NCBI GenBank assembly: GCA_003135635.1 | Contig: PLCJ01000001.1 | Span: forward strand, 8,836 to 72,835 | DNA: 64,000 bases | From: Candidatus Adlerbacteria bacterium | Lineage (GTDB): Bacteria; Patescibacteriota; Minisyncoccia; Phycocordibacterales; SBAW01 | Direction of reading: 5' to 3' | Shown here: in pieces, positions 3,589 to 48,780 of the stretch | How the letters are laid out: each line of letters starts with the position of its first letter | How positions within the stretch are numbered: the first letter of the stretch is position 1 | Position numbers and translations under genes: made by a program | Notes under the pieces: generated by a model | What the model saw: the letters and a program-made list of their open reading frames with translations, nothing else | The model's database searches: none | Told to the model about the DNA's origin: nothing

Positions 3589-3654
3589 GTACCTATCCTA
3601 CGATACAATGAGGTCAAATTAAGTGCAGGTAAACCCCTCAGAAAAGTATCCTCC

Positions 3655-5482: not shown

Positions 5483-5486
5483 AGCT

Positions 5487-8401: not shown

Positions 8402-8407
8402 GACATA

Positions 8408-8767: not shown

Positions 8768-8770
8768 ACG

Positions 8771-9322: not shown

Positions 9323-9324
9323 AG

Positions 9325-9987: not shown

Positions 9988-10037
9988 CAGTATTAGTATA
10001 CCGTTAAAAATTCCACAACTGCGGATCTATCAACAGA

Positions 10038-11117: not shown

Positions 11118-11233
11118 CAGGGAGTAGTATACCACTGTGTAGAAAGAGATTTGTGGCTCTAGGGCCTTCTGGTGTATACGTTTTCCGTCAGACTGAGTAT
11201 CTGGTACATTTATGAAGCAAAGGAAAGAATTAC

Positions 11234-11785
11234 GTGGTTGTTTCGTCATTACCTATGGAGCATAAAGATAAAGAAGAGGAGTTTCGGGAGGTATTCGAAA
11301 AACACTCAGATGAGTTATTTCGGCACTGCCACCTGCGCCTCTCTGATCGAGAGCGAGCGGTCGAGCTCACGCAGGAGACCTTCCTGCGGGCGTGGGAGTA
11401 CGTCTCCAAAGGAAATGTGGTTAAAAATTATCGACCTTTTCTCTATCGCATTCTCAACAACCTTGTTGTAGACGAATACCGTAAGAAAAAATCTCAGTCA
11501 CTGGATGCCCTTCTTGAAGATGAAGAAACAGTGGTTTCAATCGAAGGAGAATTTCTGCGGGATGAATCCGATGCGCTTGAAGCCGCTATGATTCGGTTTG
11601 ATGCGGCTCATGCTATTGAGGCTCTAAAAAAACTTCCCCAGCAGTATCAGGTTGTTCTTATTATGCGCTACGTTGATGGCTTTTCTTCTACGGAAATTGC
11701 CGCATATATGAAAGAAAAAGAAAACGCGATCGCGGTGCGCATCCACCGGGGCCTTCGGAAACTACGCGATATGCTTGAACTATAA
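11234..11785 (+). CDS. ECF-type RNA polymerase sigma factor (sigma-70 regions 2 and 4)
   Basis: ETFLRAWEYVSKG region 2; VVLIMRYVDGFSSTEIAAYM...RIHRGLRKLRDML region 4; alternative start at 11255 (MEHKDKEE). Confidence 0.85.
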   Translation: MVVSSLPMEHKDKEEEFREVFEKHSDELFRHCHLRLSDRERAVELTQETFLRAWEYVSKGNVVKNYRPFLYRILNNLVVDEYRKKKSQSLDALLEDEETVVSIEGEFLRDESDALEAAMIRFDAAHAIEALKKLPQQYQVVLIMRYVDGFSSTEIAAYMKEKENAIAVRIHRGLRKLRDMLEL

Positions 11786-13648: not shown

Positions 13649-14365
13649 ATGGAGCAAAATCAAAACGTTGCCGCTTCCAGTTTACAGCCAGGAACAAAGA
13701 TCATGGTTGATGGTGCTGTTTACGAACGTTTTCCCATAAAAGTGATGCGGCTCATTGAGTTCGGTGAGAACTTAGAGGACAATTTCAATGAATTCGTAAA
13801 ACCTTATTATAAAAAAGGAGACTGGGTTATGCTTTCGGAGAAAATTATCTCGATCTCTCAAAACAGAGTGCGACATATTTCCACGGTACGGGTGACCTGG
13901 CTTGCGCGGCTCATCACGAAAGGAGTGAAAAAACATAAAAATATGACTGCATGGTCAAAGCCGGAAAAAGTTCAGGTGGCAATAGAGGAAGCGGGCATTT
14001 ACCGCATTATTCCCGCCATGATCTTAGGCGGCATTGGAAAGCTCTTCGGCCTCCATGGCATATTTTGGATTATTGCAGGCGGCCGTGTTTCAGAGATCGA
14101 CGGTTTTATTCCGGAGGATATGTATCCCTATACTGAATGGGCGGTACTTCCTCCCCCCGATCCACAAAGAGTGTGCGAGGATTTAGAAAAAAAACTCGGC
14201 ATTCCTATTGCAACTGCAGACGCAAATTATATCGATGTAAAAGTACTGGGAGTAAGCAAGAGCGTCGGGCTTGATAAAAAAACCGTGCGACGAGTCATTC
14301 TCGACAATCCTCTGGGCCAAGGAAATAAAATGACACCATTCGTGCTGGTTCGAAAAATAAGCTAA
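13649..14365 (+). CDS. CofE-like protein (F420-0:gamma-glutamyl ligase family fold), function unknown here
   Basis: GDWVMLSEKIISISQNRV matches the GD..V.SK.VSKAEGR core of PF01996; alternative start ATG 13703 (MVDGAVYE) has weak SD. Confidence 0.5.
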   Translation: MEQNQNVAASSLQPGTKIMVDGAVYERFPIKVMRLIEFGENLEDNFNEFVKPYYKKGDWVMLSEKIISISQNRVRHISTVRVTWLARLITKGVKKHKNMTAWSKPEKVQVAIEEAGIYRIIPAMILGGIGKLFGLHGIFWIIAGGRVSEIDGFIPEDMYPYTEWAVLPPPDPQRVCEDLEKKLGIPIATADANYIDVKVLGVSKSVGLDKKTVRRVILDNPLGQGNKMTPFVLVRKIS

Positions 14366-27972: not shown

Positions 27973-28044
27973 GCGCGAGTAGCTCAATGGTAGAGCATCC
28001 GTCTTATACACGGACGGCTCCTGGTTCGAGTCCAGGCTCGCGCA
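27973..28044 (+). tRNA. tRNA with anticodon UAU (tRNA-Ile(UAU)-like)
   Basis: GCGCGAG acceptor, D-arm GCTCAATGGTAGAGC, anticodon arm TCCGT-CTTATAC-ACGGA (U33, anticodon TAT, A37), T-arm CCTGGTTCGAGTCCAGG, 3' CTCGCGC+A; followed by CC. Confidence 0.8.
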
Positions 28045-28073
28045 CCGGAGGTTTAGCAGTATACTAATGTCGT

Positions 28074-30040: not shown

Positions 30041-30484
30041 ATGACCATCTTGGAGCATAAAAAAGCACGACTCAATTTTGAGCTGCTTGAAGAATTTGAA
30101 GCGGGTATCGAACTATTCGGGTTTGAGGTCAAAGCGTTGCGCGCAAAGCTCGGCAAACTCGATGGGTCGCATGTGATCGTGCGGGGCAAAGAGGGTTACA
30201 TAGTTGGTATGCATATCCCTCCCTACCAGCCCAAAAATACGCCAAAAGAATATGATCCCGATAGAATACGTAAATTACTTCTCACAAAAAAAGAATTAGC
30301 AGTCCTTGCTGGTTTGGAGTCGCAAAAGGGCTTGACAATAGTGCCTATTTCGGTATATACTAAAAACAGGAAATTGAAACTGCGTATCGCAGCTGCGCGC
30401 GGGAGAAAAAGATACGATAAGCGCGAAGTGCTTAAGGCACGCGATGCGAAACGAGAGATGGATCGATCATTGAAAAATCAATAA
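30041..30484 (+). CDS. smpB: SsrA-binding protein SmpB
   Basis: MTILEHKKARLNFELLEEFEAGIELFGFEVKALRAK...; start trimmed to ATG 30041. Confidence 0.9.
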   Translation: MTILEHKKARLNFELLEEFEAGIELFGFEVKALRAKLGKLDGSHVIVRGKEGYIVGMHIPPYQPKNTPKEYDPDRIRKLLLTKKELAVLAGLESQKGLTIVPISVYTKNRKLKLRIAAARGRKRYDKREVLKARDAKREMDRSLKNQ

Positions 30485-30538: not shown

Positions 30539-30915
30539 GGGGATGCATTGTCTAGACAATAGAATCATGTGGTCGGCAGTGCGAAGTAGAAGTCCGGAAC
30601 TTCTCTAACACTCCGGAAAACTATAACTGCCAAATCAGTTAGTTCGCCGTATTTCTCGGCGAATAATTTCGCGTTCGCCTACGCTAAGGCCTAACGCGAC
30701 ACTCGCTGCACAACGCTCGTACGTGCAGGCTTGGGTGTCATAATATCGAGCTGCATTGATAAGAGCGCTTTCTCTTATTAATAAAGATTTAGAGCTTAGA
30801 TACAAAATGGTTTTGTCTGTTTTTTACATTTTGTATCGAAACTATAAATAGACTACGCTTTGTAGAAACACCACCACTTCTCTGTTGCACGCGAGCTCAC
30901 TACTCGCCATCTCCA
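30539..30915 (+). ncRNA. ssrA: tmRNA (ssrA) candidate
   Basis: 5' GGGGAUG... pairs with 3' CAUCUCC-A (G3:U wobble, tRNA-Ala identity); T-arm-like GCGAG-CTCACTA-CTCGC just before acceptor; internal ORF GCC AAA...GCC TAA (30629-30694) with B. subtilis-like ACUGCCAAAUC resume context, proposed tag ending ...ANNFAFAYAKA*; directly downstream of smpB. Confidence 0.6.
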
Positions 30916-30944
30916 CAAATAAAGTTGGAATCACTTGTTTGTGC

Positions 30945-30972
30945 TTGACAAGTTTGTATTATATGCTATGAT
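30945..30972 (+). promoter_or_regulatory. Strong sigma-70-like promoter
   Basis: cTTGACAAGT-16 nt-TATGAT, 30 nt upstream of ORF 31001. Confidence 0.6.
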
Positions 30973-31000
30973 AGCACACGCTAACATTAATTAAACAGCC

Positions 31001-31525
31001 ATGAACAAATTTCGTCATATTTCACAAGCATTTTATGGCATTGCCATTTTGGCAACAATTGTGATAGTTCCACACATGTTGTCCGTACCAGTTGCACATG
31101 CTTATGGAAGCGTTAACTCAACGGCTCCATATCTTTGCTGGAATAATTCTTCCTACTGTTCCCCAGTTGTTATTGATACAACTGGACAGTATGTCACACC
31201 TATTAACGTCGCCGGAACGTGGTCTGCTAATGAAGTTCCTGCAACTTATAATGACGTACCTGTGACAATAAACCTTCCGTCCTCGACTGTTACACCTGTT
31301 GGTGAGAGCCCGATCATTATTCCTCCCACCACCTGTGGGACTTATAATTGCATTCCTTCTCATCAAAATTGTATACGTGGCGTTGACTACATCAATGGCT
31401 GCATTAACTATTGCGGAATCGATAATTGTATTCCTCACAATTATAACTACTGTCTCGCGAGCATTGACGGTTGTGTATGGAATAATCCTTGGAACAATTC
31501 GTGGGTGAACAACTATAACTACTAG
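31001..31525 (+). CDS. Secreted Cys- and Asn-rich small protein (174 aa), unknown function
   Basis: Signal peptide ...VAHAYG; 10 Cys with repeated C-I-P-(S/H) and NxxC motifs; C-terminal WNNPWNNSWVNNYNY. Confidence 0.65.
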   Translation: MNKFRHISQAFYGIAILATIVIVPHMLSVPVAHAYGSVNSTAPYLCWNNSSYCSPVVIDTTGQYVTPINVAGTWSANEVPATYNDVPVTINLPSSTVTPVGESPIIIPPTTCGTYNCIPSHQNCIRGVDYINGCINYCGIDNCIPHNYNYCLASIDGCVWNNPWNNSWVNNYNY

Positions 31526-31705
31526 AATTATTATCCTTTTACTGTTAGTCAAAACTGCCCCTAGGGGTAGTTTTGATTTACAAACGATATATATTCATCG
31601 CACTAGTCACTAAGACAGGTTCTAACTTGGTCAACTCATCTCCACAGATAAAATAGCCTTATTTTATAAGGCTCTATAGAGTCAGATCCTTCGTGCACAC
31701 TACAC

Positions 31706-31733
31706 TTGACAAGTAAGCATTATACGATACAAT
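31706..31733 (+). promoter_or_regulatory. Strong sigma-70-like promoter (same extended -35 as 30945)
   Basis: cTTGACAAGT-16 nt-TACAAT upstream of ORF 31762. Confidence 0.6.
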
Positions 31734-31761
31734 ATAAACCTCAATCTTGGCTTAGAGCTTT

Positions 31762-33471
31762 ATGAATTCTCGCTATATTTCCAAACTATTTTACGGAGTC
31801 ACAGTTCTTTGCGTAGTTGTCTTTTCTGTCTCGGTAGCAAGCAGCGTACAGGCGCAGCAACTGCCTATATCGGGCACGCTTACCTGCACCTCTCTTTCTT
31901 ATAACCTCCGGGAAGGATCTACTGATGCATATACGGGCGGAGAGGTAAGTAGATTACAGACCTTTTTGAATCAGGAAAACTATTTTCCCTATGCGGCAGT
32001 AGGTATCTTTGGTCCAGTAACGTATACATCCGTACGAAATTTTCAAGCGGCCCACGGCATATCTAGTACAGGATACGTTGGACCGATAACGAGAGCCGCG
32101 ATTCAACAAATGTCTTGCGGGGGCGCTACGAATATTCCAACGTCAGGTCTTTCACTCCAGTCGTTATCGCCTAATTTAGTAGCGATAGGAAATACGGTAA
32201 CGCTATATGGTACAGGATTTACTTCTGACAATACCATTCTCCTTGCGAGCGGGGCGATTGCTCACGTAGCTTCATATAATGGGACTTCTCTTTCCTTTAC
32301 TGTGCCAAGCACCATCGGGCCAGATTGCTCGGGAACCACTCTGTGTCCAGATTGGATAAGACAGCTTACTCCCGGCACATATAACGTATCTATTGAAAAT
32401 ACATACGGCACTAGCAACACACTGACGTTAACAATTACAGCAAACGGAATAATTCAAGGGGGATATCAATCTCCTGTCATCTCTAGTATCAGCGCTCCTA
32501 CACAATTAACTGTAGGTCAAACAGGAACGTGGACTGTCTATGCCACTAGTCAAACGCAAAATGGGCAGCAACTGAACTATGCAGTTAATTGGGGTGATGG
32601 ATCAAATAATCCATACTCTCAAAACTTCTCTGCTTCAACGGTGTCTTCTGGAACATTTACCCATGCGTATAGTAGTCCAGGCACCTATACTTCCACTTTT
32701 ACAGTCACGGATAGCAATGGTCAATCAAACTCAGCAAGTGCTTCAGTCATAGTGAGTGGACAGCAAAACCAAACTTCAAGCCTGTACATTCAATCACTCT
32801 CACCTTCTTCAGGAGTTGTTGGAACTACGGTGACTATATATGGCTCTGGTTTTACCTCTAATGACACGGTCAACTTCCAAGGCCAAGGAAACGCTTACGT
32901 GAGTTCTGTATCTAGTAATGGGACTTCTCTTTCCTTTACTGTGCCAAGCACATTGACTCAAACTGGATCGGTGACCGGAACTGGATACTGTGCGGTTTCT
33001 TGGACCTGTTCCTATCCTCCTACGAGTCCAGGAATATATAACGTCTCAGTCACAAATGGAAATGTTACCAGCAATGCGCTCCCTTTCACTGTTACCACTG
33101 GCAGTACTAGTAATATTTCTGCCACTCCTTCCATCCAATCACTTTCACCAATATCAGGAATAGTAGGAACAATCGTGACAATATATGGATCAGGATTTAC
33201 TTCTAATGATGTTATAGATTTTGGTACCACTGTATTTTCAGCAGACGTCCTCAATCCCATATCTATATCTAACGATGGAACGAGCATCTCTTTCACTATC
33301 CCGAGTACATGGTCGTCGGGGTTTCTCTGCCCCACAGATATTGTGTGCTCTCCAGTTTTTATAGTTCCAGGAACTTACGGTGTATGGGTTGCCAATATTA
33401 GTACAAACAAGATAAGTAACGCTCTTAGCTTCACCGTCATCAGCTCGGGACAAACGAGAACTCTTCAATAA
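31762..33471 (+). CDS. Secreted wall-associated protein: N-terminal peptidoglycan-binding domain + three IPT/TIG-like repeats + PKD-like domain
   Basis: Signal peptide; LQTFLNQENYFPYAAVGIFGPVTYTSVRNFQAAHGI; repeats IQSLSPxSGxVGTxVTIYGSGFTSND...NGTSLSFTVPST x3; NWGDGS...THAYSSPGTYTSTFTVTDSNG PKD signature. Confidence 0.75.
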   Translation: MNSRYISKLFYGVTVLCVVVFSVSVASSVQAQQLPISGTLTCTSLSYNLREGSTDAYTGGEVSRLQTFLNQENYFPYAAVGIFGPVTYTSVRNFQAAHGISSTGYVGPITRAAIQQMSCGGATNIPTSGLSLQSLSPNLVAIGNTVTLYGTGFTSDNTILLASGAIAHVASYNGTSLSFTVPSTIGPDCSGTTLCPDWIRQLTPGTYNVSIENTYGTSNTLTLTITANGIIQGGYQSPVISSISAPTQLTVGQTGTWTVYATSQTQNGQQLNYAVNWGDGSNNPYSQNFSASTVSSGTFTHAYSSPGTYTSTFTVTDSNGQSNSASASVIVSGQQNQTSSLYIQSLSPSSGVVGTTVTIYGSGFTSNDTVNFQGQGNAYVSSVSSNGTSLSFTVPSTLTQTGSVTGTGYCAVSWTCSYPPTSPGIYNVSVTNGNVTSNALPFTVTTGSTSNISATPSIQSLSPISGIVGTIVTIYGSGFTSNDVIDFGTTVFSADVLNPISISNDGTSISFTIPSTWSSGFLCPTDIVCSPVFIVPGTYGVWVANISTNKISNALSFTVISSGQTRTLQ

Positions 33472-33571
33472 GAAGCTTCTTTTCGACTTCGTAGAGGCAG
33501 CCTTATTTTCACTATTTCTATAGTGAGTATAGGAGTAGTGAAAGAATATTTATTGGTTGTATAATTGAGCT

Positions 33572-33952
33572 ATGAATAAAACTTCTTTTCTCATTTTGAG
33601 AGTGGGGCTGGCTATTACTTTTATTTGGGTGAGTGTATTGATTTTTAGGCAACCAGAAACTTGGGGAAGTCTTATACAACCTTGGGCACTTAAACTGCTG
33701 CCCATTCCGCTTGTACAGATAATGATGGGAACTGCACTATTGGATATGGTCATCGGTATATTATTTTTCTTTGGTCGAACTGCGTGGATTGCAGGCCTGC
33801 TGGGATTCCTGCACCTTGTGACCGTCCTTGTAGCAACTGGAATCAACGACATAACCGTTCGAGACATCGGACTTCTTGCCGCTTCCCTTGCCGTTATGAT
33901 TACCTCACTGCCTCCATCTGTGAGAAACTTATTTGCTAAAACAAGAATATAG
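33572..33952 (+). CDS. Small polytopic membrane protein (DoxX-like?)
   Basis: 4 predicted TM helices; no catalytic motif. Confidence 0.5.
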   Translation: MNKTSFLILRVGLAITFIWVSVLIFRQPETWGSLIQPWALKLLPIPLVQIMMGTALLDMVIGILFFFGRTAWIAGLLGFLHLVTVLVATGINDITVRDIGLLAASLAVMITSLPPSVRNLFAKTRI

Positions 33953-34032
33953 ACACCCACCTCTGAGGGGCTGTGGATGTCTGTATGTGTTAAAATATTC
34001 CTTAATTATATATTAGCCAATAAATAACTCGT

Positions 34033-34341
34033 ATGATTTTTTTCCTTATCCTTGGCATTATTCTCGGTGCAATTTCAGTAGTTTTTCTCTTGCAGAATAT
34101 CACTGTGGTTACGGTGGCATTCTTAACCTGGCAGATTCAAGGTTCACTAGCTGTGGTATTATTTCTCGCTATTTTGTGTGGGGCGATAATGGCTTTGTTG
34201 TTTTTGCTCCCCAGCTTTATTAGCGATGCTTTGTATCTCTCTGCAATAAAAAAGCGGAAAAAGGAACTTGAAGATGAGCTTGCGGATACTAAGCATGCTT
34301 TAGAAAATGCAACCTCTCACACCGAGACTTCTATCCTCTAG
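34033..34341 (+). CDS. LapA/DUF1049-like membrane protein
   Basis: Two TM helices then KKRKKELEDELADTKHALENA coiled coil. Confidence 0.5.
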   Translation: MIFFLILGIILGAISVVFLLQNITVVTVAFLTWQIQGSLAVVLFLAILCGAIMALLFLLPSFISDALYLSAIKKRKKELEDELADTKHALENATSHTETSIL

Positions 34342-34389
34342 TACAAGGCTATCTCCCACTACAAAAGGACGAATACCGTAAGGAGTAAG

Positions 34390-34917
34390 CTATCGTATAC
34401 CAGTATCGATACTGATAGCGACTGTTGAAACTTGTCCCGTAGTAATAATAAGAGTTGTTGGTACCCCTCGCACGCCACCAATCGATTGGTGTTGTATGTC
34501 AATAAAATATGTACCTGTAGGAAGAGTTGCGGAAAAATTACCGTTTGCATCAGGAATGAGCGTCGTGATGAGCTTCGACCTGTCAGAAGAGTAGACAAAG
34601 ACCGTGTGTGCGGCATACATCTGAGGTGTTGGGTTACACGGATGACCAACTTGCTCAACAGGACAAATTGGTCCGATGGTCATAGTTCCTTGAAGAACAC
34701 CGTTTCCTTTTTCTTGCAGTGGTGGGGGGCAAGCTGCAAATGCACAGTCTGGACCTGTTCGACCGACATAGCTTCCATCAGGACACTGCTTTGCTTCCTG
34801 AGTACACGCAACTGGATGTGGGGAATTATTGAAAAAATAAACTGTCCATAAAACGCCGCCAATTATTAAGATAATTGCGAGAAGCAAAATAGCATGCCAC
34901 TTCCCCATCCAAGCCAT
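34390..34917 (-). CDS. Membrane-anchored extracytoplasmic protein, unknown function
   Basis: N-terminal TM (AILLLAIILIIGGVLWTVYFF), Cys pairs, beta-rich C-terminal domain. Confidence 0.5.
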   Translation of the reverse strand: MAWMGKWHAILLLAIILIIGGVLWTVYFFNNSPHPVACTQEAKQCPDGSYVGRTGPDCAFAACPPPLQEKGNGVLQGTMTIGPICPVEQVGHPCNPTPQMYAAHTVFVYSSDRSKLITTLIPDANGNFSATLPTGTYFIDIQHQSIGGVRGVPTTLIITTGQVSTVAISIDTGIR

Positions 34918-35027
34918 ATGGTTTTAATGGTATCACTTGTTTTTAGCTCTTGGAGTAGATTCGAGCATCGCTCAAGACAAAGAGTAAGTGAGATCTCATC
35001 TTGAAGTATTCCGCATTGAGTCGTTCA

Positions 35028-35336
35028 TTACACTCTATCCATAGAACTGAAAATGAATGAGAAAAGCTGAATGATAAGCCAGCCCAAAATGGCGTAGCAG
35101 ATCATGGCCAAAACGATTGAGAGGTTAATCACTGAGTTGCCTCCGATGAATAGCCCCGGGAAGGCTCCTACAAAGGGACCTGCGAGTCTATCGGTGACTT
35201 CATAGAGCCATGCGATGAATTGTGCTGCTGGACTTGCACCGAACAATTGCAATGCCAGCCGCAGAGCGAAGAGAGCTTCAATGATTCCGATAATTGTGTT
35301 GACCAGTCGCATTATAAAAGTTGCCATGATAATCAT
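35028..35336 (-). CDS. YggT family membrane protein
   Basis: ~100 aa, two TM helices, YggT-like LRLALQLFG motif. Confidence 0.6.
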   Translation of the reverse strand: MIIMATFIMRLVNTIIGIIEALFALRLALQLFGASPAAQFIAWLYEVTDRLAGPFVGAFPGLFIGGNSVINLSIVLAMICYAILGWLIIQLFSFIFSSMDRV

Positions 35337-35498
35337 TATACTCCAGATACTATTTAGTAGCCTAGGTTAATACTTCTACTTCCTGAACCTTAAACTTGAG
35401 AGAAATTTGTTCTACTTTGCACACTAGCGTTCGTACTGGATGAGAATAGTTGCCTCTTATATTTTTCTTTGATATAGTCTCTCACATCAGCTACTATT

Positions 35499-36011
35499 TT
35501 GGATACTCGAATTAATCACCAGATCCGTGCGAAAGAAGTGCGTGTCATCGGTCCTGAAGGAGAGAACTTCGGGGTGCTGGCGCTGAGCGAAGCCTTGGGA
35601 CAAGCAGAGAGTTTTGGACTTGACCTTATTGAAATTTCTCCAAACGCCAACCCTCCCGTTGCAAAAATAATGGAGTATGGTAAATTCCATTACGAACAGG
35701 AGAAAAAACGCCGAGAGATGAAGGCGAAATCCCATGCCACCGAGACCAAAAATGTACAGGTCAAAATCGGCACGGGTGATCATGACTTAACACTCAAGGC
35801 AAAAAAAGCTGCCGATTGGCTTAATGAAGGCCACCGTGTCAAAGTGAATCTTTTTCTCTGGGGTCGGTACAAGTACATGGAATTTGATTTCCTAAAAGGA
35901 CGGCTAGAGCGATTTTTGAAACTGATTCCGTATGAATATAAGTTGGGAGAGCCGATAGCAAAAAGCCCGAAGGGGCTCTCTGCCGTCATAGAAAGAGACA
36001 CTAAAAAGTAA
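35499..36011 (+). CDS. infC: Translation initiation factor IF-3
   Basis: INHQIRAKEVRVIGPEGENFGVL...IEISPNANPPVAKIMEYGKF; non-ATG start (TTG at 35499 or ATT at 35496) as in other infC genes. Confidence 0.9.
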   Translation: MDTRINHQIRAKEVRVIGPEGENFGVLALSEALGQAESFGLDLIEISPNANPPVAKIMEYGKFHYEQEKKRREMKAKSHATETKNVQVKIGTGDHDLTLKAKKAADWLNEGHRVKVNLFLWGRYKYMEFDFLKGRLERFLKLIPYEYKLGEPIAKSPKGLSAVIERDTKK

Positions 36012-39737: not shown

Positions 39738-40937
39738 CTAGGCAGTGATCTTGGTGATAACGCCTGCGCCGACGGTCTTACCACCTTCGCGCACGGCGAA
39801 GCGCTGCTTTTCTTCAAGCGCAACCGGGGCAACGAGCTTGACCTTAAAGGTAATGGTATCCCCTGGCATGACCATCTCGGTTCCTCCGGGAAGCGTTACT
39901 TCCCCTGTTACATCCGTAGTGCGCAGATAAAACTGCGGTTTGTATCCGGTGAAAAACGGTGTGTGCCTGCCACCTTCCTCTTTGGTAAGAACATATACCT
40001 CTGATTCAAATTCGGTGTGCGGCGTCACTGAACCGGGTTTTGCAAGCACCTGGCCACGATGGATATCTTCTTTTTTAGTGCCACGAAGAAGTACGCCTGC
40101 ATTATCCCCTGCAACACCGGAGTCAAGCTGCTTGTTGAACATTTCAATACCAGTGACTGTAGTTTTTGTCGTTGGCTGAAGACCGACAATTTCTATTTCT
40201 TCACCTACTTTCACTTGCCCGCGTTCAATGCGACCAGTGACGACCGTGCCACGGCCTTCAATTGAGAAGATGTCTTCAATCGGCATGAGAAATGGCTTGT
40301 CTAACTCGCGCTGCGGAAGCGGAATATAGCTATCAAGCGTCTTTACGAGCTCAAGCACCTTCTGAGATGCTTCGCTGTTTATATCTTTTGATTCAAGTGC
40401 CTTCAGGCCCGATCCGCGAATGACTGGAGCATCTTTGCCATCAAAGCCTTGTTTGGTAAGAAGATCGCGAACTTCTTCTTCAACGAGATCAATGAGGTCT
40501 TTATCATCCACCATGTCTACTTTGTTTAAGAAAACGACCACCCGAGGCACACCGACCTGTTTTGCAAGCAGAATGTGTTCACGGGTCTGGGGCATAACAC
40601 CATCGGTTGCAGCGACAACCAAAATTGCGCCGTCCATCTGTGCGGCACCGGTAATCATGTTCTTAATGTAGTCGGCGTGGCCTGGAGCATCAATGTGTGC
40701 GTAGTGGCGCTCTGGAGTCCAGTACTCAGAGTGGTGAAGTGCAATAGTAATACCGCGCGCTTTTTCCTCAGGCGCGTTGTCGATACCCTCAACTCCCTCT
40801 ACGCGTGCGCCATAGCCCTGGTCTTTGGCCATATCAAGCGTATGGAGAATTGCCGCGGTAAGAGTAGTCTTTCCGTGGTCAACGTGGCCAATGGTGCCGA
40901 CGTTTACGTGAGGCTTGGTGCGTTCAAATGTTGCCAT
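39738..40937 (-). CDS. tuf: Elongation factor Tu
   Basis: [44 protein letters not shown]. Confidence 0.97.
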
Positions 40938-41178: not shown

Positions 41179-41724
41179 ATGAACAATCTCCAACGGCTTG
41201 TCCTGCTAATCGCAGTGGCGAGCGGTGGGCTCGTTGCCTGCACAGGAGGAGGTAGCGGAGGTGGAGGATTTAACCCTACCCCACTGCCGGTGTCTCCGAC
41301 GCCAATGATCACACCCAAGTCCTTCAATGGATTTGATCTCACGGTGTTGGGTAGTGGAAGCCTCGCCGTGGATTACATCCTCACGGGGTCCTATGCCCAG
41401 CAAGTCCCGGCAGCGGATGTCGGGAAGGGAGTCACCTGCGTTCAATCAAACGGGCAGAATTACCTCCAGGGAGCAAGTTTGCATCTTGCTGTCGGGGGAG
41501 AATTGAACGACCCCGACGCTTCGTCAACGGGCTATATCGTGGAGCTGACCGCCAGCTCCGGAGGAAACATTCCCGCAAACGTACAGGTGAAGTGTCAGAT
41601 GAAGCTCAATGACGGCACGGTGATTACCCCCTTCTCCGCGTCCTACGAGACCTGGACGACCGCAGTCCCTTCCGGCTGGACGGAGACGAACGACACTCCG
41701 AGCACGGCAACAGCCGCGCTTTAA
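41179..41724 (+). CDS. Predicted lipoprotein, unknown function; GC-rich relative to neighbours
   Basis: Signal + lipobox LLIAVASGGLVAC; strong SD AAGGAGG 7 nt upstream; codons end mostly in G/C, unlike flanking genes. Confidence 0.7.
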   Translation: MNNLQRLVLLIAVASGGLVACTGGGSGGGGFNPTPLPVSPTPMITPKSFNGFDLTVLGSGSLAVDYILTGSYAQQVPAADVGKGVTCVQSNGQNYLQGASLHLAVGGELNDPDASSTGYIVELTASSGGNIPANVQVKCQMKLNDGTVITPFSASYETWTTAVPSGWTETNDTPSTATAAL

Positions 41725-41730
41725 TTCCCA

Positions 41731-41790
41731 AAACACGAGAGCCCGTTCCGACGCACAGATTGTGCATCGGCGCGGGCTCATTTTTTATAT
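41731..41790 (+). terminator. Rho-independent terminator
   Basis: GAGCCCG...CGGGCTC stem with internal palindrome, followed by ATTTTTTAT. Confidence 0.65.
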
Positions 41791-41796
41791 AACTAA

Positions 41797-42687
41797 TCAG
41801 TGAGAAGAAAGGGTGGAGTCATTGCTCTGACTAGGAAGTGCACGAATAGCAGTGAGAAAATCGTTGAAGTGTTGCGCCAAAATTGGCTGGCCCGTTACTA
41901 AGTTCTTTGTCCAACTAAATTCAGGTAGCCCGCATTGCGTATATATTGCATTTACTGCGTCTCGTAAAGCTATGTAGTGGGCAGCTCTAATTACAGTATT
42001 GCCTGATACGAGTTCTGTGGGCTCTCCCCCATTTATTGCCAGTGGATCAGTATTCCCAAAGCTGTCTAGGTCAAGGTGTGTACCCGTTACCTGAAAATAC
42101 AGCTGTATTATCGCAGCACGGAGATCTGTAACCCCAGCTGCATATATGGGTGTGCCCAGAGATACGCTTGGGGGCAATGAGACAGAAAATAAGCTGCAAT
42201 TACTTCCTGCCACCGTATAGGTTGCTGTTGCAGTAAGTCCATAGGACTCTGCGCTTACTGTATAGGTACCCGGAGTATCTGGAGCATTAAACGTCGTACT
42301 GTAAAGAAATCCTCCTCCAGTATCTACAGTTTGATCGGAGGGATCTCCCGGGGCCGCTAGAATTAAAATACCATCAAACGCATCTCCAGTAATAGGACTG
42401 AGTGGAATTATTCCACTAATTGTAACGGTTTCCCCTGGTGCATACGCTGATTTGTCCGTACTCACAGTGGTACACTGTATATCTTTATACTCAATAATTT
42501 TCTCATCAGAGGTATAGCCCGGTAAATCAGCATTGGTATAATAGATCGTTGTGCAGGAAGAGCCAAACGTGCCATTATTTCGTGAAGCATTAACACTGTG
42601 AGAAGAAAAAGAAAATATCACACTAAAGACTGCTACAAAAAGAAGAGCGAATTTGAAAAAGGTTGAAGTTGCTGAGATTTGTTTCAT
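41797..42687 (-). CDS. Secreted protein, unknown function
   Basis: Signal peptide MKQISATSTFFKFALLFVAVFSVIFSFSSHSVNA; Thr/Gly-rich beta domain; start trimmed to ATG 42687. Confidence 0.6.
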   Translation of the reverse strand: MKQISATSTFFKFALLFVAVFSVIFSFSSHSVNASRNNGTFGSSCTTIYYTNADLPGYTSDEKIIEYKDIQCTTVSTDKSAYAPGETVTISGIIPLSPITGDAFDGILILAAPGDPSDQTVDTGGGFLYSTTFNAPDTPGTYTVSAESYGLTATATYTVAGSNCSLFSVSLPPSVSLGTPIYAAGVTDLRAAIIQLYFQVTGTHLDLDSFGNTDPLAINGGEPTELVSGNTVIRAAHYIALRDAVNAIYTQCGLPEFSWTKNLVTGQPILAQHFNDFLTAIRALPSQSNDSTLSSH

Positions 42688-42723
42688 ATAATCGCCAAGT
42701 TTAGTCATAAAAAATTTTTCTAC

Positions 42724-44028
42724 TCATAGCTCTACATGATGCATTCCATGCTTCAGTGCAAAAAATGCACCAAGAAGGATAAGAAGCACTAGAATAAACG
42801 CAAATAATTCGGTATTTGCTTTGCTCCATGGCAAAGTATTTATCGGAGGATGTGCGCTTATAACGATTAGCATTTTGTGAGCATATACATTTCCCGTTCC
42901 GTCTGTTATGGAAGCCGTAACTGTAGGGCTTATACATGTCGCTGTTATTTGCATGGGCACGACAATCTGAATGCTACTTGAGCTAGTTATTGTTTGTGAC
43001 ACGGGCGCGGCGCACGAGAATCCTTTTCCATCTACAAGAGAGAGGCCGAGATAGGCTTCTCGTGCAGTAGATCCGCTAAAAAAGTCAGGAGAGAGTGTCC
43101 AGGTGACGGTGGCAGTTGCAACATCACCTCTAGCATACATATCTTTATCAAGAACAAGATCTTCTATCGTTGCAGAAGGTCCGCTTACCTGATAAAGGAA
43201 AAAGGTAGGATTTGAAACTATGCTACCGGCACTATCAGCAAAGCTTAATTTAGCTTCATACAGCTGAGGCATTTGAGGTACGAGCAATAGGAAAGAAACC
43301 GAGTGCAGGGCGCCAGGAGAAAAAACACTTCCCTGCTGTGCAGAAGGTGCGGCTGTCACCATTTGACCGAACTGACTTTGATAAAATGTCTCAACGACAG
43401 GTGAGAGCGTTTGCACAGACGTAAAATGGCTTTGCACCTGACAGGTCGCACGAAGTATGTCCGTGGAGGATACTCCTATTCTCTGCTGAGGCAGATAATG
43501 TGTAGTACTTGTCCCTACGGTAAGAAAGCAGGTCGAAGGAAGAATTGTTGCATATCCCTGATTAGATGCTGGCACAATTATCTTCCCAGCAAAGGCAACC
43601 CCAAGTGGAAGTCCACTGCTTGTACGGGCTTCTATAACAATTTGATATGTGCCGGATAGATAGGGAGGAATCGGATATGAAATACTGCGGCCGATGGATT
43701 GATTGGCAGAGAGAGAAAGAGTTTCATTTGCAACGCTGGTATCAACAATTTGCTGCGGTGTTCCTTTTTGTGTTGATAGGACATCGATACCGTAGCGAAT
43801 ATCCGGCTGCGCAGTATCGCTATTTTGTAGCGCAAAAGTAACGGTGAGAATCCCGCCACTTAGCTGTGCATTCGCGGCATGAATCGATACCGTGGAAATG
43901 GTGGCTTGCTCTGTAGAAGTACTCACTGCGGCAAAAGCTGTCGAAGAGTAAGAAAGAGCAATTAACAAAATCGCTGCCGCGCCAAGATGCTTAAACACAA
44001 ACGTAATAAGGGGATAGGGCTTTTTCAT
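42724..44028 (-). CDS. Secreted protein with C-terminal membrane anchor, unknown function
   Basis: N-terminal signal (AAILLIALSYSSTAFA), C-terminal LFAFILVLLILLGAFFALKH helix; start trimmed to ATG 44028. Confidence 0.6.
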   Translation of the reverse strand: MKKPYPLITFVFKHLGAAAILLIALSYSSTAFAAVSTSTEQATISTVSIHAANAQLSGGILTVTFALQNSDTAQPDIRYGIDVLSTQKGTPQQIVDTSVANETLSLSANQSIGRSISYPIPPYLSGTYQIVIEARTSSGLPLGVAFAGKIIVPASNQGYATILPSTCFLTVGTSTTHYLPQQRIGVSSTDILRATCQVQSHFTSVQTLSPVVETFYQSQFGQMVTAAPSAQQGSVFSPGALHSVSFLLLVPQMPQLYEAKLSFADSAGSIVSNPTFFLYQVSGPSATIEDLVLDKDMYARGDVATATVTWTLSPDFFSGSTAREAYLGLSLVDGKGFSCAAPVSQTITSSSSIQIVVPMQITATCISPTVTASITDGTGNVYAHKMLIVISAHPPINTLPWSKANTELFAFILVLLILLGAFFALKHGMHHVEL

Positions 44029-44035
44029 TTGAATT

Positions 44036-44383
44036 CTATTGATAGACGATGCCCGCGGTTGAAGGAGAACATATAATATTTCCTTGTGCATCTGTGGCGA
44101 GATTAGTGCAGTTTTGTATTGGTATCAACTCAACACTACCTTGACGCACAATAAGAGCTTGGGCCTGTACGCCCCCTGCGTTTAGCTCTACACCACCCTG
44201 TTTTATTTGCCAGCTGGAACCAACATTTAAGGGAGCCGGGGTGTTGCCACCTGGAGCTTGGGCGGTAGGAGGATTCCACACACCGGAGTCAGCAGAGACG
44301 ATATTAGCGAAAAGCACGGCACCGCCAAGGGCAAGAAAAACAACTGCGGCCTGAGTTAGTATGGCTTTTAATTCTATTTTCAT
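44036..44383 (-). CDS. Small secreted protein (116 aa)
   Basis: Signal peptide AVVFLALGGAVLFANIVSA; Gly-rich; start trimmed to ATG 44383. Confidence 0.55.
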   Translation of the reverse strand: MKIELKAILTQAAVVFLALGGAVLFANIVSADSGVWNPPTAQAPGGNTPAPLNVGSSWQIKQGGVELNAGGVQAQALIVRQGSVELIPIQNCTNLATDAQGNIICSPSTAGIVYQ

Positions 44384-44428
44384 ACTCTGTGATTCCTTAA
44401 TTACACCTAATAATATCACTTTCCCACA

Positions 44429-45490
44429 CTATAACTCTCTATACGAAGGTATGAGGGTAATACTCACACTTGAAGTATAGGGAGCTCCGTTTGAATCCGT
44501 GCACGTTAAAGTATATATCGCCTTTTGGGTAATGGGTTTAGTGGTAAACTCCGAATTCCCCGAAAGAGTCCCTCTGTCAGCATTTGTGGCAGAGATAGAG
44601 CATGAACTTAGATTAACATTTGACAAATTGACCCCATACAGGTTGACCTTCGATTGAGCAGTAACAAGTGCGCTTTCAACACATGAGGATTGTTTCGTAC
44701 TGAGACAGCCACTAGCAGAAGGGGGTATGCATTGGCCCGTGCTTTGATTGCATCCATCATTACAAGCAGTAACCGCTACTTGATTTGGATCGGTGGTACA
44801 TTCACTGCTACCGTCTGGAGAACAGGTACACCCCGTAATGCATTCCCCCGTACCTTGATTGCAGCCCAGTGGACAATCTGTTGTTGTTGTATTTCCTTGG
44901 GTGTCTGTGGTCTGACTATTATTGCTGTCAATGCAGATATGGGTGTTGGGGGTCGCATACACTCCGCTAAATGATACCCAGCCAACGACATTTCCTCCCC
45001 ATGCAAACCCACTCAATACGCCATCCTGTGCAGTAAGGCCGTCCCCATAGCCAGTGCTGCCAAGATCGATCCATCCATCCCATCCATCAGTACGGCCAAT
45101 AGCTGAGATCGCCCGTGCCCATCCCGTAACAGTGCCATCTCTAGCAACTTTTCCCTGACAACTACTCCCTTGGGGGACAGGGCATCCTTGCACATCATTG
45201 TAGTTGAAACTCACCCAACCGATGTTGCTGCTCCAGGCATAACCGCTTAATGTTCCCGTAGGGAATCCGGAGGAAATGACGTCGTAATTACTTGTTCCGC
45301 ACACATTACTTTGTCCTGGACCGCCCTCCTCGCAGTTTAAGCTTATCCATCCGATATTACTGCTCCATGCATAACCTCCAATTGGGGTTGGGGGAACAGC
45401 GAAAGCATGCACTCGTGAAGATAGAGCGACTATAGACACAAAAACCAGAAGGAGGGACAGTAGAAACCACCACCGGCCGAAAATATTCAC
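44429..45490 (-). CDS. Secreted repeat protein: three G[YF]AW[SG][SG]N[IV][GV]W[IV]SF motifs + Cys-rich C-terminal modules
   Basis: Signal peptide; GYAWSSNIGWISLN / GYAWSSNIGWVSFN / GFAWGGNVVGWVSFS; CPLGCNQGTGECITGC and CNDGCNQSTGQCIP modules. Confidence 0.65.
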   Translation of the reverse strand: MNIFGRWWFLLSLLLVFVSIVALSSRVHAFAVPPTPIGGYAWSSNIGWISLNCEEGGPGQSNVCGTSNYDVISSGFPTGTLSGYAWSSNIGWVSFNYNDVQGCPVPQGSSCQGKVARDGTVTGWARAISAIGRTDGWDGWIDLGSTGYGDGLTAQDGVLSGFAWGGNVVGWVSFSGVYATPNTHICIDSNNSQTTDTQGNTTTTDCPLGCNQGTGECITGCTCSPDGSSECTTDPNQVAVTACNDGCNQSTGQCIPPSASGCLSTKQSSCVESALVTAQSKVNLYGVNLSNVNLSSCSISATNADRGTLSGNSEFTTKPITQKAIYTLTCTDSNGAPYTSSVSITLIPSYREL

Positions 45491-45544: not shown

Positions 45545-47689
45545 CTATTTTCTCTCAGCCACTATTGCTGCCGAAACACTGGGCGGCACCACCTCATAAT
45601 GGTCAAATTCCATAGTAAAACTTGCCCGTCCCTCAGTCATTGAGCGCAGCACGGTCGTATAGCCGAACATCTCCGCAAGAGGGACGGTTGCTCTAATAGC
45701 TCGGGCAAGCCCCCGCTCTTCGGTCCCCTCTATCTGACCGCGCCTTCCGTTGAGGTTGCCCGTAACGTCACCCATAAACTTTTCAGGCGTCACGACTTCT
45801 ACCTTCATGACAGGCTCAAGCAAGACTGGCTTAGCAGCTTTTGCCGCGTCCTGGAAGCCCATTGAAGCCGCAATTTTAAAAGCGATTTCTGAGGAATCTA
45901 CATCGTGATAGGAGCCATCGTAGAGTTCAACGGAAATATCAACGAGCTTAAAGCCCGCAACGATGCCTCGCTCCATTGCCTCGCGTACTCCTTTTTCAAC
46001 TGCAGGTATGTACTCCTGAGGAATCACTCCTCCTTTGATGTTATTGATGAATTCAAAGTGATCCTCCCGAGTAATGTTTTTGCGCACCTTTGCTCCCTCC
46101 ACAATTTTCTCAAGAGGTTTTATGCGCAGCCGTACATGACCATACTGTCCGCGGCCGCCTGTTTGTTTTATATATTTCCCTTCCGCCTCAGCCTCTTTTT
46201 GTATAGTTTCGCGATACGCCACCTGCGGCTTGCCGACATCAGCCTCAACGTTAAATTCGCGTTTCATGCGATCAACCAAAATTTCCAAGTGGAGCTCCCC
46301 CATGCCCGCAATAAGAGTCTCGAGAGTCTCCGCATCAGTTGAAACTTTAAACGTAGGATCTTCATCGGAGAGTTTCTTCAGAGCAATACCCATTTTTTCC
46401 TGGTCTGCTTTGGTCTTGGGTTCAATGCGCATAGAAATAACTGGTTCGGGAAAGTGTATTTGCTCAAGGATAATGGGATTATTCTCATCACAAAGTGTAT
46501 GGGAAGTTTTGGTGTTTTTGAGGCCCACCGCCGCAGCAATCTCTCCGGAGTACACCGTCTTTACTTCTTCGCGCTGGTCAGCTTGCAGGCGCACGATGCG
46601 TCCCACTCGCTCTTTCTCTCCCGTGGTCGAGTTATAAACATAGGAACCCGCTTCAACAATGCCCGAATACACACGGAAAAACGTGAGCTGCCCCACAAAG
46701 GGATCCGCTTGGAGTTTAAAAGCAAGCGCACAAAAGGGCTCAGAGTCAGACGCATGGCGTTCCACCTCTTTGCCATCTTTTGGATTAATGCCCTTAACTG
46801 GTGGCATATCAAGAGGAGAAGGCAAATAGTCTACAACCGCGTCAAGCACGAGCTGCACCCCTTTGTTTTTAAGCGCGGAGCCGGTGTAAACGGGAAAGAT
46901 CTTGTTATCTATGACCGCTCCCCGAAGGGTGGCATTGAGCTCTTCAAGACTCGGCTCTTTACCGTCAAGGTAGCTGGTCATGAGTGCATCATTGTGCTCG
47001 ACAATTCTTTCGACGAGCTCAGCGCGATACTTGGTGGCGTCAGGGAGATATGCCTCTGGAATAGCAAATTCGATGACCGCATCACCCATATTCCCCTCAA
47101 AGCGGTAGGCTTTCATTTTCAAAAGATCAATCACGCCTTCAAACTTCTCTTCAGCGCCAATAGGGATTTGCATGCGTACGGCGCTCTTGCTCAAGCGATC
47201 AAGAATAGAGTGAAAGGATTTCTCAAAGGATGCACCGGTGCGATCAAGTTTGTTGATGAAACACACCCGCGGCACTTTCGCTTCGTCGGCATAGCGCCAG
47301 TTGGTCTCCGACTGCGGTTCAACGCCGGCAACACCATCAAATACAACGATTGCCCCATCGAGCACTCGCATAGAGCGCTTTACTTCAGCGGTAAAATCAA
47401 TATGCCCCGGGGTATCGATAATATTGAAACGGTATTTCTTAGACGCATCTTTTTTATCCTGCTCCTCAGTCTTTGACCAAAAACAAGTAATCGCAGCGGC
47501 AGTGATAGTAATACCTCGCTCCCTCTCCTGCTCCATCCAGTCAGTGGTGGTCTCCCCTTCATGCACCTCACCGATTTTGTGCTGCGACCCTGTGTAGTAC
47601 AAAACACGCTCAGACGTGGTCGTCTTGCCCGCGTCGATGTGCGCGATGATGCCGAAATTGCGAACTTTTTGAAGTGGGTAGTCTCTCAT
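45545..47689 (-). CDS. fusA: Elongation factor G
   Basis: [33 protein letters not shown]; 714 aa. Confidence 0.97.
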
Positions 47690-47769: not shown

Positions 47770-48780
47770 CTAAAGATCAAGAATATGCCGCGCAAGTAGT
47801 GTGGAATCGTGACGAATAAGATCCTGCACAAGACCAGGCTTGCTTAAGAAATCCGCGCACACAATTTTTTCCGACCGCAAACGCACCCGCTCCTCAGCCC
47901 CCGCATCAAAGACAACCGGGAATGCTTTTTCTTTCGCCTGGTATGCCTGAAGCAACTTCTTCGGGATCACTCCACTATTAACGAGTACCGCGTCAAGACA
48001 ATCTCTCCCGATACCATAGGCAAAGAGCGTTTCAACAAAATCCGCAACGCTAAAATCTCTCGTTTCGGCATACTTCGTCATAATATTTGCAACGTATATA
48101 ACTCGCGCGGAGGAATCATGAATTGCTTCTGCGGCTCCCTCTACCAGAAGATTTGGGATAATGGAGGTGTAGAGGTCGCCCGGTCCCAACACAATGAGAT
48201 CGGCTTTCTGTATTGCCTCAGCTGCTTCACGGCAGATAAGCGCAGAGGGCTGAAGTGATACACGCACAATAGTGCGCGTATCATTGTACCCGCGCGTATC
48301 AATCGCTCCTTCACCTTCCAGAGAAGAGCCGTCGGAGAGCTCCGCCACCAAAGTAGCGTGATCTATTGAAATCGGCAGTACTTCTCCGTGGGCATCAAGG
48401 AGCCTGCTTATCCGACGAATGCCTTCAATCGGTCCCCACAATTGCTCCGCGGCAAGTAGCAGCACATTGCCTACGTTGTGTTCGGAAAGTCCCGAACCAT
48501 TTCCTTGAAAACGGTGGCTAAAAATTTCTCGCAGAGTATCGTACTCATCATTTGCCAGTGCCAAGATACACCGGCGAATATCTCCTTGGGGCAGTGAACC
48601 AAATTCATCGCGCAGCTTCCCAGTGCTCCCGCCGCTGTCAAACACCGTACAAATCGCCGTCGGTCGGCCAGGATACCGGTTGAGCCCGCGATTGACTATA
48701 AACCCACCGCTTCCGCCGCCGATGGTCACAATCCTTCGCTCTAATATGTGGGAGCTGCCCTGCATGCCTTTAGGATACAA
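47770..48780 (-). CDS. yvcK: YvcK/CofD-like (UPF0052, gluconeogenesis factor family) protein
   Basis: IVTIGGGSGGFIVNRGL, FDSGGSTGKLRDEFG motifs. Confidence 0.8.
   Translation of the reverse strand: MYPKGMQGSSHILERRIVTIGGGSGGFIVNRGLNRYPGRPTAICTVFDSGGSTGKLRDEFGSLPQGDIRRCILALANDEYDTLREIFSHRFQGNGSGLSEHNVGNVLLLAAEQLWGPIEGIRRISRLLDAHGEVLPISIDHATLVAELSDGSSLEGEGAIDTRGYNDTRTIVRVSLQPSALICREAAEAIQKADLIVLGPGDLYTSIIPNLLVEGAAEAIHDSSARVIYVANIMTKYAETRDFSVADFVETLFAYGIGRDCLDAVLVNSGVIPKKLLQAYQAKEKAFPVVFDAGAEERVRLRSEKIVCADFLSKPGLVQDLIRHDSTLLARHILDL

Follow-up and report, generated by a model that had tools for sequence, protein, structure and literature searches.

What does the short open reading frame (ORF) directly behind the transfer-messenger RNA (tmRNA) gene of a Paceibacteria/Parcubacteria bacterium encode, and how did it come to lie there? 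The bacterium belongs to the candidate phyla radiation (CPR), and the ORF, referred to here as the orphan, was studied in a window of 64,000 nucleotides (nt), by which we mean the whole stretch of DNA analyzed. It starts 83 nt past the end of the tmRNA gene. We conclude that it is very probably a genuine gene for an exported, disulfide-bonded protein without relatives. We are more tentative about its role, and hold with somewhat less than even confidence that the product would be a small, disulfide-knotted surface factor of the adhesin or lectin kind whose gene sits on a cassette beside the tmRNA gene. The coordinates of all features are collected in Table 1.

The full translation is MNKFRHISQAFYGIAILATIVIVPHMLSVPVAHA followed, across the predicted cleavage site, by YGSVNSTAPYLCWNNSSYCSPVVIDTTGQYVTPINVAGTWSANEVPATYNDVPVTINLPSSTVTPVGESPIIIPPTTCGTYNCIPSHQNCIRGVDYINGCINYCGIDNCIPHNYNYCLASIDGCVWNNPWNNSWVNNYNY. 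A sequence-only reading of this locus had described a small secreted protein with 10 cysteines, and the ORF, the residue count, and the features of the leader bear this out. The leader combines a basic n-region (K3, R5), a hydrophobic core with a 19-residue hydropathy peak of 2.08 at residues 13 to 31, and a cleavage site between V-A-H-A and Y-G; read by the usual rules, this N-terminus is signal-peptide-like and of the Sec/signal peptidase I type, in agreement with the earlier claim. The predicted mature protein has 140 amino acids (aa), a mass of 15.3 kDa, and an acidic pI of 4.1, and it contains 21 Asn, 12 Tyr, 5 Trp, and 13 Pro but only 1 Arg and no Lys. The cysteines are residues 46, 53, 112, 117, 124, 134, 138, 143, 151, and 158, and the intervals between successive cysteines of the Cys core (112 to 158) are 4, 6, 9, 3, 4, 7, and 6 residues. 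The Thr/Pro-rich segment noted earlier corresponds to residues 54 to 111, which are rich in Pro, Thr, Val, and Ile, and the Asn/Trp-rich tail is equally real: the C-terminus reads WNNPWNNSWVNNYNY and ends in WVNNYNY. The account of the cysteine spacing holds in part. C-I-P does occur twice (residues 117 to 119 and 143 to 145), but the recurring spacing before the cysteines is N-C and N-x-C rather than N-x-x-C.

The orphan carries no lipobox of the form L-[AS]-[GA]-C; its first cysteine is residue 46, which follows P-Y-L and lies 12 residues past the AXA site. The type IV pilin motif PF07963 does not match it, whereas the 4 true pilins of the same window do match. A sortase-type C-terminus (LPXTG, a transmembrane segment, and a basic tail) is not present, and no hydrophobic segment occurs past residue 34.

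The control elements around the ORF and a repeat within it argue for a gene. The sigma-70-like promoter ahead of the orphan matches the consensus at 11 of 12 positions. Only 4 sites in the 64 kb, both strands included, score this well, and 2 of them precede the orphan and the next gene. The promoter had been called strong; it is among the 4 best of the window, but strength here means consensus match only. The 14-bp hairpin 22 nt past the stop codon has a folding energy of −26.1 kcal/mol (z = −5.9; 0 of 200 shuffles equally stable) and, although its T-run is weak, is likely the terminator of the gene. Inside the frame, the 4-Cys units b and c share the pattern C-G-x2-N-C-I-P-x4/5-C-x4-D-x0/3-G-C. 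Their alignment scores 61, against 27.3 ± 5.9 for composition-preserving shuffles, 1 in 2,000 of which reaches 61. Different synonymous codons encode 6 of the 11 residues that are identical between the units, and nucleotide identity is 63% overall; thus, the repeat has been kept at the amino acid level and not at the DNA level, with the proviso that the sample is small and the alignment was optimized for identity. Such a pattern is expected from translation under purifying selection and makes it less likely that the body arose de novo only very recently, evidence that we regard as supportive, not conclusive. Tandem Repeats Finder reports no repeat in the gene. Two further candidate repeats, TYNDVP/TYNCIP in the linker and HNYNY/NNYNY in the tail, were not significant against shuffles, nor was a similarity of the tail to unit c.

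It is highly unlikely, on these grounds, that the frame is a chance opening between the tmRNA gene and the next gene. A run of 174 stop-free codons in DNA of 42% GC is very unlikely to arise by chance (our own estimate is ~2e-5 per frame start), and the promoter, the leader, the terminator, and a distance to the ATG equal to that of the real neighboring gene all fit this frame, as does an in-frame periodic cysteine repeat with synonymous divergence. What a chance opening would explain is that the frames differ little in codon usage, that the opposite strand has an ORF of 144 codons, and that the orphan has neither a homologue nor a Shine–Dalgarno sequence. The last point is blunted by the window itself, where most real genes have no Shine–Dalgarno sequence either.

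The search for homologues suggested in the earlier reading was extended across protein, genome, metagenome, viral, and plasmid data, and it returned none: the orphan is a singleton among ~15 billion proteins. A word-indexed search of 5.8 billion clusters retrieved the orphan itself only. Exhaustive phmmer against 1.84 billion representatives retrieved the orphan and 2 repetitive proteins whose scores were summed over 6 low-complexity stretches and which we judged spurious on reading. Peptide-pattern searches of GTDB genomes, JGI metagenomes, and IMG/VR, tblastn over phage and plasmid records, and phmmer --max against the six-frame ORFs of 80 related smpB loci yielded no relative, and the cassette found no match by blastn and tblastx in the window or in the relatives. 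The profiles of Pfam, NCBIfam, PHROGs, and PADLOC do not match the orphan, and Pfam run on the whole and on each half at expectation values (E) up to 10 gave noise. Against 177,635 PDB sequences, phmmer at E up to 10 listed only a histidinol dehydrogenase and a pentapeptide-repeat effector (E 0.8 to 9.7). The pentapeptide-repeat idea (PDB near-match at E 9.6) was dropped, as no Pfam pentapeptide model matched at E up to 10. The earlier statement that no domain is recognizable is thereby upheld, and homology to a housekeeping periplasmic protein, which would have spoken against that reading, was not found; there is homology to nothing. The structure prediction that it had proposed was carried out but gave no usable model. 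AlphaFold2 without an alignment returned predicted local distance difference test (pLDDT) scores of 36.7 (full protein) and 33.7 (mature protein), and at values below 40 a comparison of folds is meaningless. Our search of the literature on Cys-rich secreted proteins of CPR bacteria turned up nothing specific.

A scan of metagenomes with the back-translated pattern NCIP-x22-NCIP gave 78 loci and no relative of the orphan. These loci are satellites, out-of-frame matches, or members of a marine Bacteroidota family of the type IX secretion system (T9SS) with 26-aa GCTD...NY...DDGSC repeats, which has in common with the orphan only the NCIP that was fished for and 1 cysteine. The marine proteins are an observation in their own right. 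They reach more than 1,000 aa (L100 10107–12654 on the minus strand, L155, L104, L145, L128, L123, L109, L093, L130, and L158) and have a T9SS-type C-terminal tail wherever the end is present. Their arrayed repeat reads G-C-[TM]-D-x2-A-x-N-[YF]-[DN]-x2-A-N-x-[DN]-[DN]-G-[SN]-C-I-P-x-I-Y, and no Pfam model exceeds its threshold on it, the best being Toxin_35 at 21 bits (cut-off 26.8 bits).

How did the gene come to lie behind the tmRNA gene? The tmRNA gene was found by Rfam and missed by ARAGORN. Its 3′ end reads ...CATCTCCACAA, and CCA is thus incompletely encoded. This end recurs downstream: copy B of a 16-nt direct repeat lies 729 nt beyond copy A, and the 16-mer has only these 2 copies in the window at 2 or fewer mismatches, with 0.04 expected by chance. 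The repeats delimit a 729-bp unit (30908 to 31636; the part beyond the tmRNA gene is 30919–31636) that holds a promoter, an ORF, and a terminator, with the orphan as the only ORF between them. In the closest relatives, a terminator hairpin follows within ~10 nt of the tmRNA 3′ end, and none of the 7 checked has a repeat of the tmRNA end downstream. Here, the tmRNA gene runs directly into the promoter of the orphan, and a hairpin follows the second copy of the 16-mer. This hairpin is weak (z = −1.5 for the 76-nt stretch 31630–31705 that contains it). The arrangement looks as though the 729-bp unit had been inserted between the tmRNA gene and its original trailer. A promoter-like site at 30332 (TTGACA, 18-nt spacer, TATACT; 11 of 12 matches), inside the end of smpB, may drive the tmRNA gene.

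The 16-mer is the first of 3 collinear blocks ahead of the orphan that recur ahead of the next gene, which encodes a 569-aa secreted protein. The promoter blocks of the 2 genes are 77% identical over 30 nt, with CTTGACAAGT exact; the extended block CTTGACAAGTnnGnATTATA occurs in the window only at the promoter of the orphan and at 31705 (0.02 expected); and the distance from block to ATG is 27 nt in both. The likeness continues through the first ~22 leader codons, which give MNKFRHISQAFYGIAILATIV in the orphan and MN-SRYISKLFYGVTVLCVVV in the neighbor. The leader of the orphan scores 53 against that of the neighbor; against 119 homologues of the neighbor, of which the initial 35 residues were compared, it scores 20.4 ± 3.9 with a maximum of 33, and the shared leader motif is found in 0 of these 119. 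Past approximately codon 22, phmmer, tblastn, and blastn detect no similarity between the 2 genes in any frame. The idea that the orphan's body derives from the neighbor's 5′ coding region by divergence or frame shift was rejected, since no frame shows collinear similarity. The sequence-only reading had mentioned neither the tmRNA gene upstream nor this duplicated 5′ module.

The duplicated module also suggests a young gene without a settled function: the promoter and signal-peptide start of the neighbor would have been fused to unrelated sequence, and the product would be made and exported without having a specific role as yet. We consider this rather unlikely. It accommodates the singleton status, the paralogous 5′ modules with unrelated bodies, the lowest codon-usage score among the genes tested together with low GC, and the location in a hypervariable slot. 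However, the two 4-Cys units have come to differ at synonymous sites and yet retain Cys, Gly, Asn, Ile, and Pro, which points to long selection at the protein level, and an even number of cysteines, a clean leader, and a terminator look finished rather than incipient.

The setting is one of frequent change. The closest SmpB proteins, at up to 72% identity, come from metagenome-assembled genomes of Adlerbacteria, Paceibacterota, and "Parcubacteria." Many of the 80 related loci have the backbone recG, ftsH (minus strand), smpB, tmRNA ... infC, rpmI, rplT, followed by LDcluster4, RNase J, and ndk on the minus strand; in other loci, the infC block is inverted or off the contig. In 23 relatives, the slot between the tmRNA gene and infC measures 0.1 to 8.8 kb, and no common content links one slot to another: as read from the sequences, it includes HMA-motif P-type ATPases (probably copper pumps, by motif inspection only), seeming PLD-type enzymes and seeming response regulators, many membrane proteins, and Cys-rich zinc-ribbon-like proteins. 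Across Paceibacteria (L003 to L082), the slot downstream of the tmRNA gene is a hypervariable accessory region. In the genome under study, it spans 30919–35538 and holds 6 genes, all for membrane or exported proteins: the orphan, the 569-aa protein with PG_binding_1, PKD, and IPT/TIG domains, a 126-aa protein with 3 transmembrane segments, a LapA-domain protein, a 175-aa protein with a CPDGS motif, and YggT. GC content is ~0.50 in the backbone and 0.39 to 0.41 over the orphan and its cassette.

Table 1. Features of the tmRNA–orphan locus and of neighboring exported proteins (window coordinates).
Feature	Position	Strand	Basis or remark
smpB	30041–30484		Adjoins tmRNA gene
tmRNA (ssrA) gene	30539–30918	+	Rfam RF00023, 90.9 bits (gathering score 47); full-length match, 1–374
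Direct repeat, copy A, CATCTCCACAAATAAA	30908–30923	+	3′ strand of tmRNA acceptor stem, discriminator base, first trailer bases
Sigma-70-like promoter of orphan	30945–30972	+	TTGACA, 16-nt spacer, TG-TATGAT
Orphan coding sequence, stop codon included	31001–31525	+	ATG start, 174 codons
Predicted signal peptide, aa 1–34, MNKFRHISQAFYGIAILATIVIVPHMLSVPVAHA	31001–31102	+	Hydropathy profile and AXA rule; predicted cut before YG
N-terminal Cys loop, C46-WNNSSY-C53	31136–31159	+	Read from sequence; putative disulfide
Pro/Thr/Val/Ile-rich spacer, aa 54–111 (58 residues)	31160–31333	+	Composition; AlphaFold2 pLDDT ~30–40
4-Cys unit b, aa 112–134, CGTYNCIPSHQNCIRGVDYINGC	31334–31402	+	Aligns with unit c
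4-Cys unit c, aa 138–158, CGIDNCIPHNYNYCLASIDGC	31412–31474	+	Aligns with unit b
Asn/Trp/Tyr-rich, Cys-free C-terminal tail, aa 159–174, VWNNPWNNSWVNNYNY	31475–31522	+	Read from sequence
GC-cored hairpin, 14 bp (inverted repeat I1)	31547–31578	+	Likely terminator
Direct repeat, copy B, CATCTCCACAGATAAA	31637–31652	+	15/16 identical to copy A; closes cassette
AT-rich hairpin, AGCCTTAT-TTT-ATAAGGCT	31655–31673		Just past copy B, where relatives carry the tmRNA terminator hairpin
Paralogous sigma-70-like promoter of 569-aa gene	31706–31733	+	TTGACA, 16-nt spacer, TACAAT
569-aa secreted protein	31762–33471	+	PG_binding_1, PKD, and three IPT/TIG domains (Pfam)
175-aa CPDGS-motif protein	34390–34917	−	
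353-aa exported protein, 18 Cys	44429–45490	−	No matching family

The closest parallel to this arrangement is offered by the ssrA genomic islands of Dehalococcoides, which sit at ssrA and are bordered by a 20-bp repeat of ssrA's 3′ end (PMC3146451). The cassette of the orphan likewise lies directly 3′ of a single tmRNA gene, where relatives are not alike, and it has a distal direct repeat of the tmRNA 3′ end, of 16 nt as against 20 bp in Dehalococcoides. It differs in that the insert is only ~0.7 kb long, with 1 cargo gene and neither an integrase nor an integration module, and in that the promoter and signal-peptide start of the orphan are homologous to those of a flanking chromosomal gene. 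On the reading that we prefer, a 729-bp cassette would have entered, or arisen in, the hypervariable slot that adjoins the tmRNA gene on its 3′ side, carrying a copy of the neighbor's promoter and signal-peptide start and bounded by the 16-nt repeat of the tmRNA end. We infer no more than that recombination involving the tmRNA end and the 5′ region of the neighbor placed the gene here.

A bolder version is conceivable, and we give it little credence. The 729-bp unit might be one of a class of integrase-less cassettes that stack at the tmRNA 3′ end, each with a common expression and export head (the tmRNA-end repeat, the promoter, and the signal-peptide start) and an interchangeable, fast-evolving body, the Cys-knotted, Asn/Trp-rich body of the orphan then being a binding fold not seen before. 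If this were true, host-dependent bacteria would have a means of exchanging their secreted surface proteins, or of acquiring further ones, through recombination in the head.

What might the protein do? We propose, with the reserve expressed at the outset, that the precursor leaves the cytoplasm through Sec and that signal peptidase I cleaves it after AHA, which would release the acidic mature protein. The C46–C53 loop and the two 4-Cys units would be locked by 5 disulfides. Disulfides outside the cell are plausible in this organism, since paired cysteines are found in other exported proteins of the window (the 569-aa neighbor, the 175-aa CPDGS protein, and the 18-Cys protein). The extended Pro/Thr/Val-rich spacer would hold the knotted C-terminal module off the cell, and the Asn/Trp/Tyr-rich face of the module, together with the tail, may bind a glycan or a cell-wall polymer, either the bacterium's own or one belonging to the host cell. 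The orphan could act together with the adjacent peptidoglycan-binding TIG/PKD protein, the two being switched on through a common promoter type, in attachment to the bacterium's own envelope or to the host cell.

Comparison with known disulfide-rich binders is instructive in both directions. Trp, Tyr, and Asn typically line sugar-binding sites, and the orphan resembles disulfide-rich lectins and chitin binders in being rich in all 3. With hevein/CBM18 and scytovirin-type lectins, it shares small size, export, and an even number of cysteines in a short core of 2 tandem units; the scytovirin comparison is one that we take to be a lead only. It departs from these binders in having no CC doublet, no hevein spacing, and no sequence match to Pfam or to a solved structure, and in the added 58-residue Pro/Thr/Val spacer and the Cys-free tail. 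The likeness to the PG_binding_1/IPT-TIG/PKD family of Paceibacteria is of another kind. The 569-aa member and the orphan share the promoter block, the 27-nt spacing, and ~22 leader codons, and both are exported and contain cysteines, but their mature parts are dissimilar, and Pfam finds none of the family's domains in the orphan. The suggestion of an adhesin or carbohydrate-binding protein made in the earlier reading is plausible from composition and from the neighboring gene, but no carbohydrate-binding module, hevein, or lectin family matches.

Several points weigh against the proposed function and origin. The binding role is drawn from composition and neighborhood only, and no carbohydrate-binding or adhesin family in Pfam, NCBIfam, or the PDB sequences matches the orphan. 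It has no wall anchor (LPXTG, LysM, PG_binding, or C-terminal transmembrane segment), so that only an uncleaved leader, or binding of the wall by the tail, would account for its staying at the surface. Without a homologue, there is neither conservation nor a ratio of nonsynonymous to synonymous substitution to consult, and the 2 public assemblies that contain the ORF, on contigs of 263,578 bp (ENA) and 41,148 bp (Logan), are identical in it and hence provide no evidence of population variation. In codon usage, the frame has log-odds of −0.11 to −0.13, the lowest value of the 22 genes tested and barely above that of the +1 frame (−0.20), which the odd amino acid composition could cause. As to origin, neither the ORF list nor Pfam reveals a recombinase or integrase domain anywhere in the slot. 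Simple site-specific integration does not predict promoter and leader homology to the flanking gene, and simple tandem duplication does not predict unrelated repeat-to-promoter spacers and unrelated gene bodies.

The earlier reading had also offered a bacteriocin, and a secreted antimicrobial or toxin aimed at competitors or at the host cell is indeed suggested by a small, exported, disulfide-rich, and strain-specific product under a strong promoter; accessory genes of this sort are often found in islands adjoining tRNA or tmRNA genes. Sec-dependent class II bacteriocins share with the orphan a Sec leader, a small disulfide-containing product, and strain specificity. Their mature peptides are, however, cationic and under ~10 kDa, whereas the orphan is acidic (pI 4.1, no Lys), 2 to 3 times larger at 15 kDa, and without homology to them. 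The check for adjacent immunity or transport genes came back empty. No immunity, ABC-transporter, maturation, or lysis gene was found in the slot, the neighbors being the tmRNA gene and the other slot genes listed above, although the small membrane proteins among them cannot be formally excluded as immunity factors. Neither toxin nor bacteriocin models in Pfam, NCBIfam, PHROGs, and PADLOC match the orphan, and it has no relatives in libraries that contain bacteriocins. We therefore disfavor this option and consider it improbable.

A role in extracellular metal binding through Cys and His, for instance, in the handling of copper or zinc, is very doubtful. The 10 cysteines would suit it, as would the His beside both C-I-P motifs (CIPSH and CIPH), and HMA-motif P-type ATPases, probably copper pumps, occupy the same slot in 2 relatives (L006 and L012), an assignment made by motif inspection only. 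Yet CxxC, HMA, and CopZ-type motifs are missing from the orphan, Pfam does not match it, the slot of this genome holds no metal-transport gene, and exported Cys-rich repeats with an even number of cysteines are more typically disulfide-bonded. We keep to the adhesin- or lectin-like surface factor as the best reading.

For CPR/Patescibacteria, contact with a host cell is a necessity, and the proteins of this contact are mostly lineage-specific and uncharacterized. Exported proteins without relatives abound in CPR genomes, so that a specialist will find little surprise in one more, and the locus makes a good small test case rather than a new kind of system. The orphan is a one-member new sequence family in a familiar category, the lineage-specific surface gene. 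The insertion or duplication footprint at the tmRNA gene, in turn, is unusual and tidy. The locus provides a compact candidate for a host-contact protein, whose 140-aa disulfide-knotted product would suit recombinant binding tests, and it preserves the footprint of a gene placed under a ready-made promoter and export signal beside the tmRNA gene. Strains with and without the cassette, if they exist, would document the turnover of surface proteins in reduced genomes. As 1 orphan gene in 1 metagenome-assembled genome, its general significance is modest.

Other exported proteins of the window deserve mention. The 569-aa neighbor has 343 homologues in Paceibacteria, the best 45% identical. Its gene contains a 36-nt stretch in 2 copies on the plus strand (32277–32312 and 32916–32951), 100% identical and 639 nt apart, which encode NGTSLSFTVPST in 2 TIG domains and suggest recent gene conversion or duplication between these domains. 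The 175-aa protein carries, after an N-terminal membrane helix, the four-Cys motif C-T-x-E-A-K-x-C-P-D-G-S-x-V-G-R-x-G-P-x-C-x-F-x-x-C. In other Paceibacteria, several homologues of the 569-aa protein (P0009, P0048, P0057, and P0117) begin with this motif too, at their N-terminus, and it looks like a widespread extracellular module outside Pfam. The 353-aa protein has 3 copies of G-[YF]-A-W-[SG]-[SG]-N-(V)-[IV]-G-W-[IV]-S-[FL] and, in a stretch rich in cysteine, repeats of G-C-N-Q-[GS]-T-G-x-C. A relation between its GYAWSSNIGW motif and the tail of the orphan was considered and rejected (BLASTP E ~1; E 460 with a hidden Markov model of the 3 repeats). The 353-aa protein belongs to a run of 4 consecutive genes (181, 303, 455, and 353 aa; 41179–45490) without a Pfam or NCBIfam family, which split the usually contiguous str operon between tufA (39738–40937) and fusA (45545–47689). 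Three of the 4 products have an exported-type N-terminus, and the 455-aa one has internal and C-terminal hydrophobic segments.

Further off in the window lie a sortase and 2 Ice_binding-type surface proteins. A complete type IV pilus cluster occupies 503–11249 on the minus strand, with 4 N_methyl pilins, prepilin peptidase, PilC, a PilT-like ATPase, PilB, PilO, PilN, and PilM. After the cluster come an ECF-type sigma factor (11234–11785) and a DUF5667 protein (11791–13053), and a second PilB-like ATPase is encoded at 56544–58361. The repertoire of sortase, Ice_binding proteins, and pilus fits a lifestyle centered on the cell surface.

Two observations concern other genes of the window. A tRNA-Ile with anticodon TAT (UAU) is encoded at 27973–28046 on the plus strand, between recG and ftsH. 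This is an uncommon decoding arrangement, since in most bacteria AUA is the task of a CAU tRNA modified with lysidine. A CofD-family gene (47770–48780, minus strand) lies between fusA and rpsG, and an F420-ligase-like gene lies at 13649–14365 on the plus strand; neither would be expected in a CPR genome that has no F420 metabolism, and both probably have other roles.

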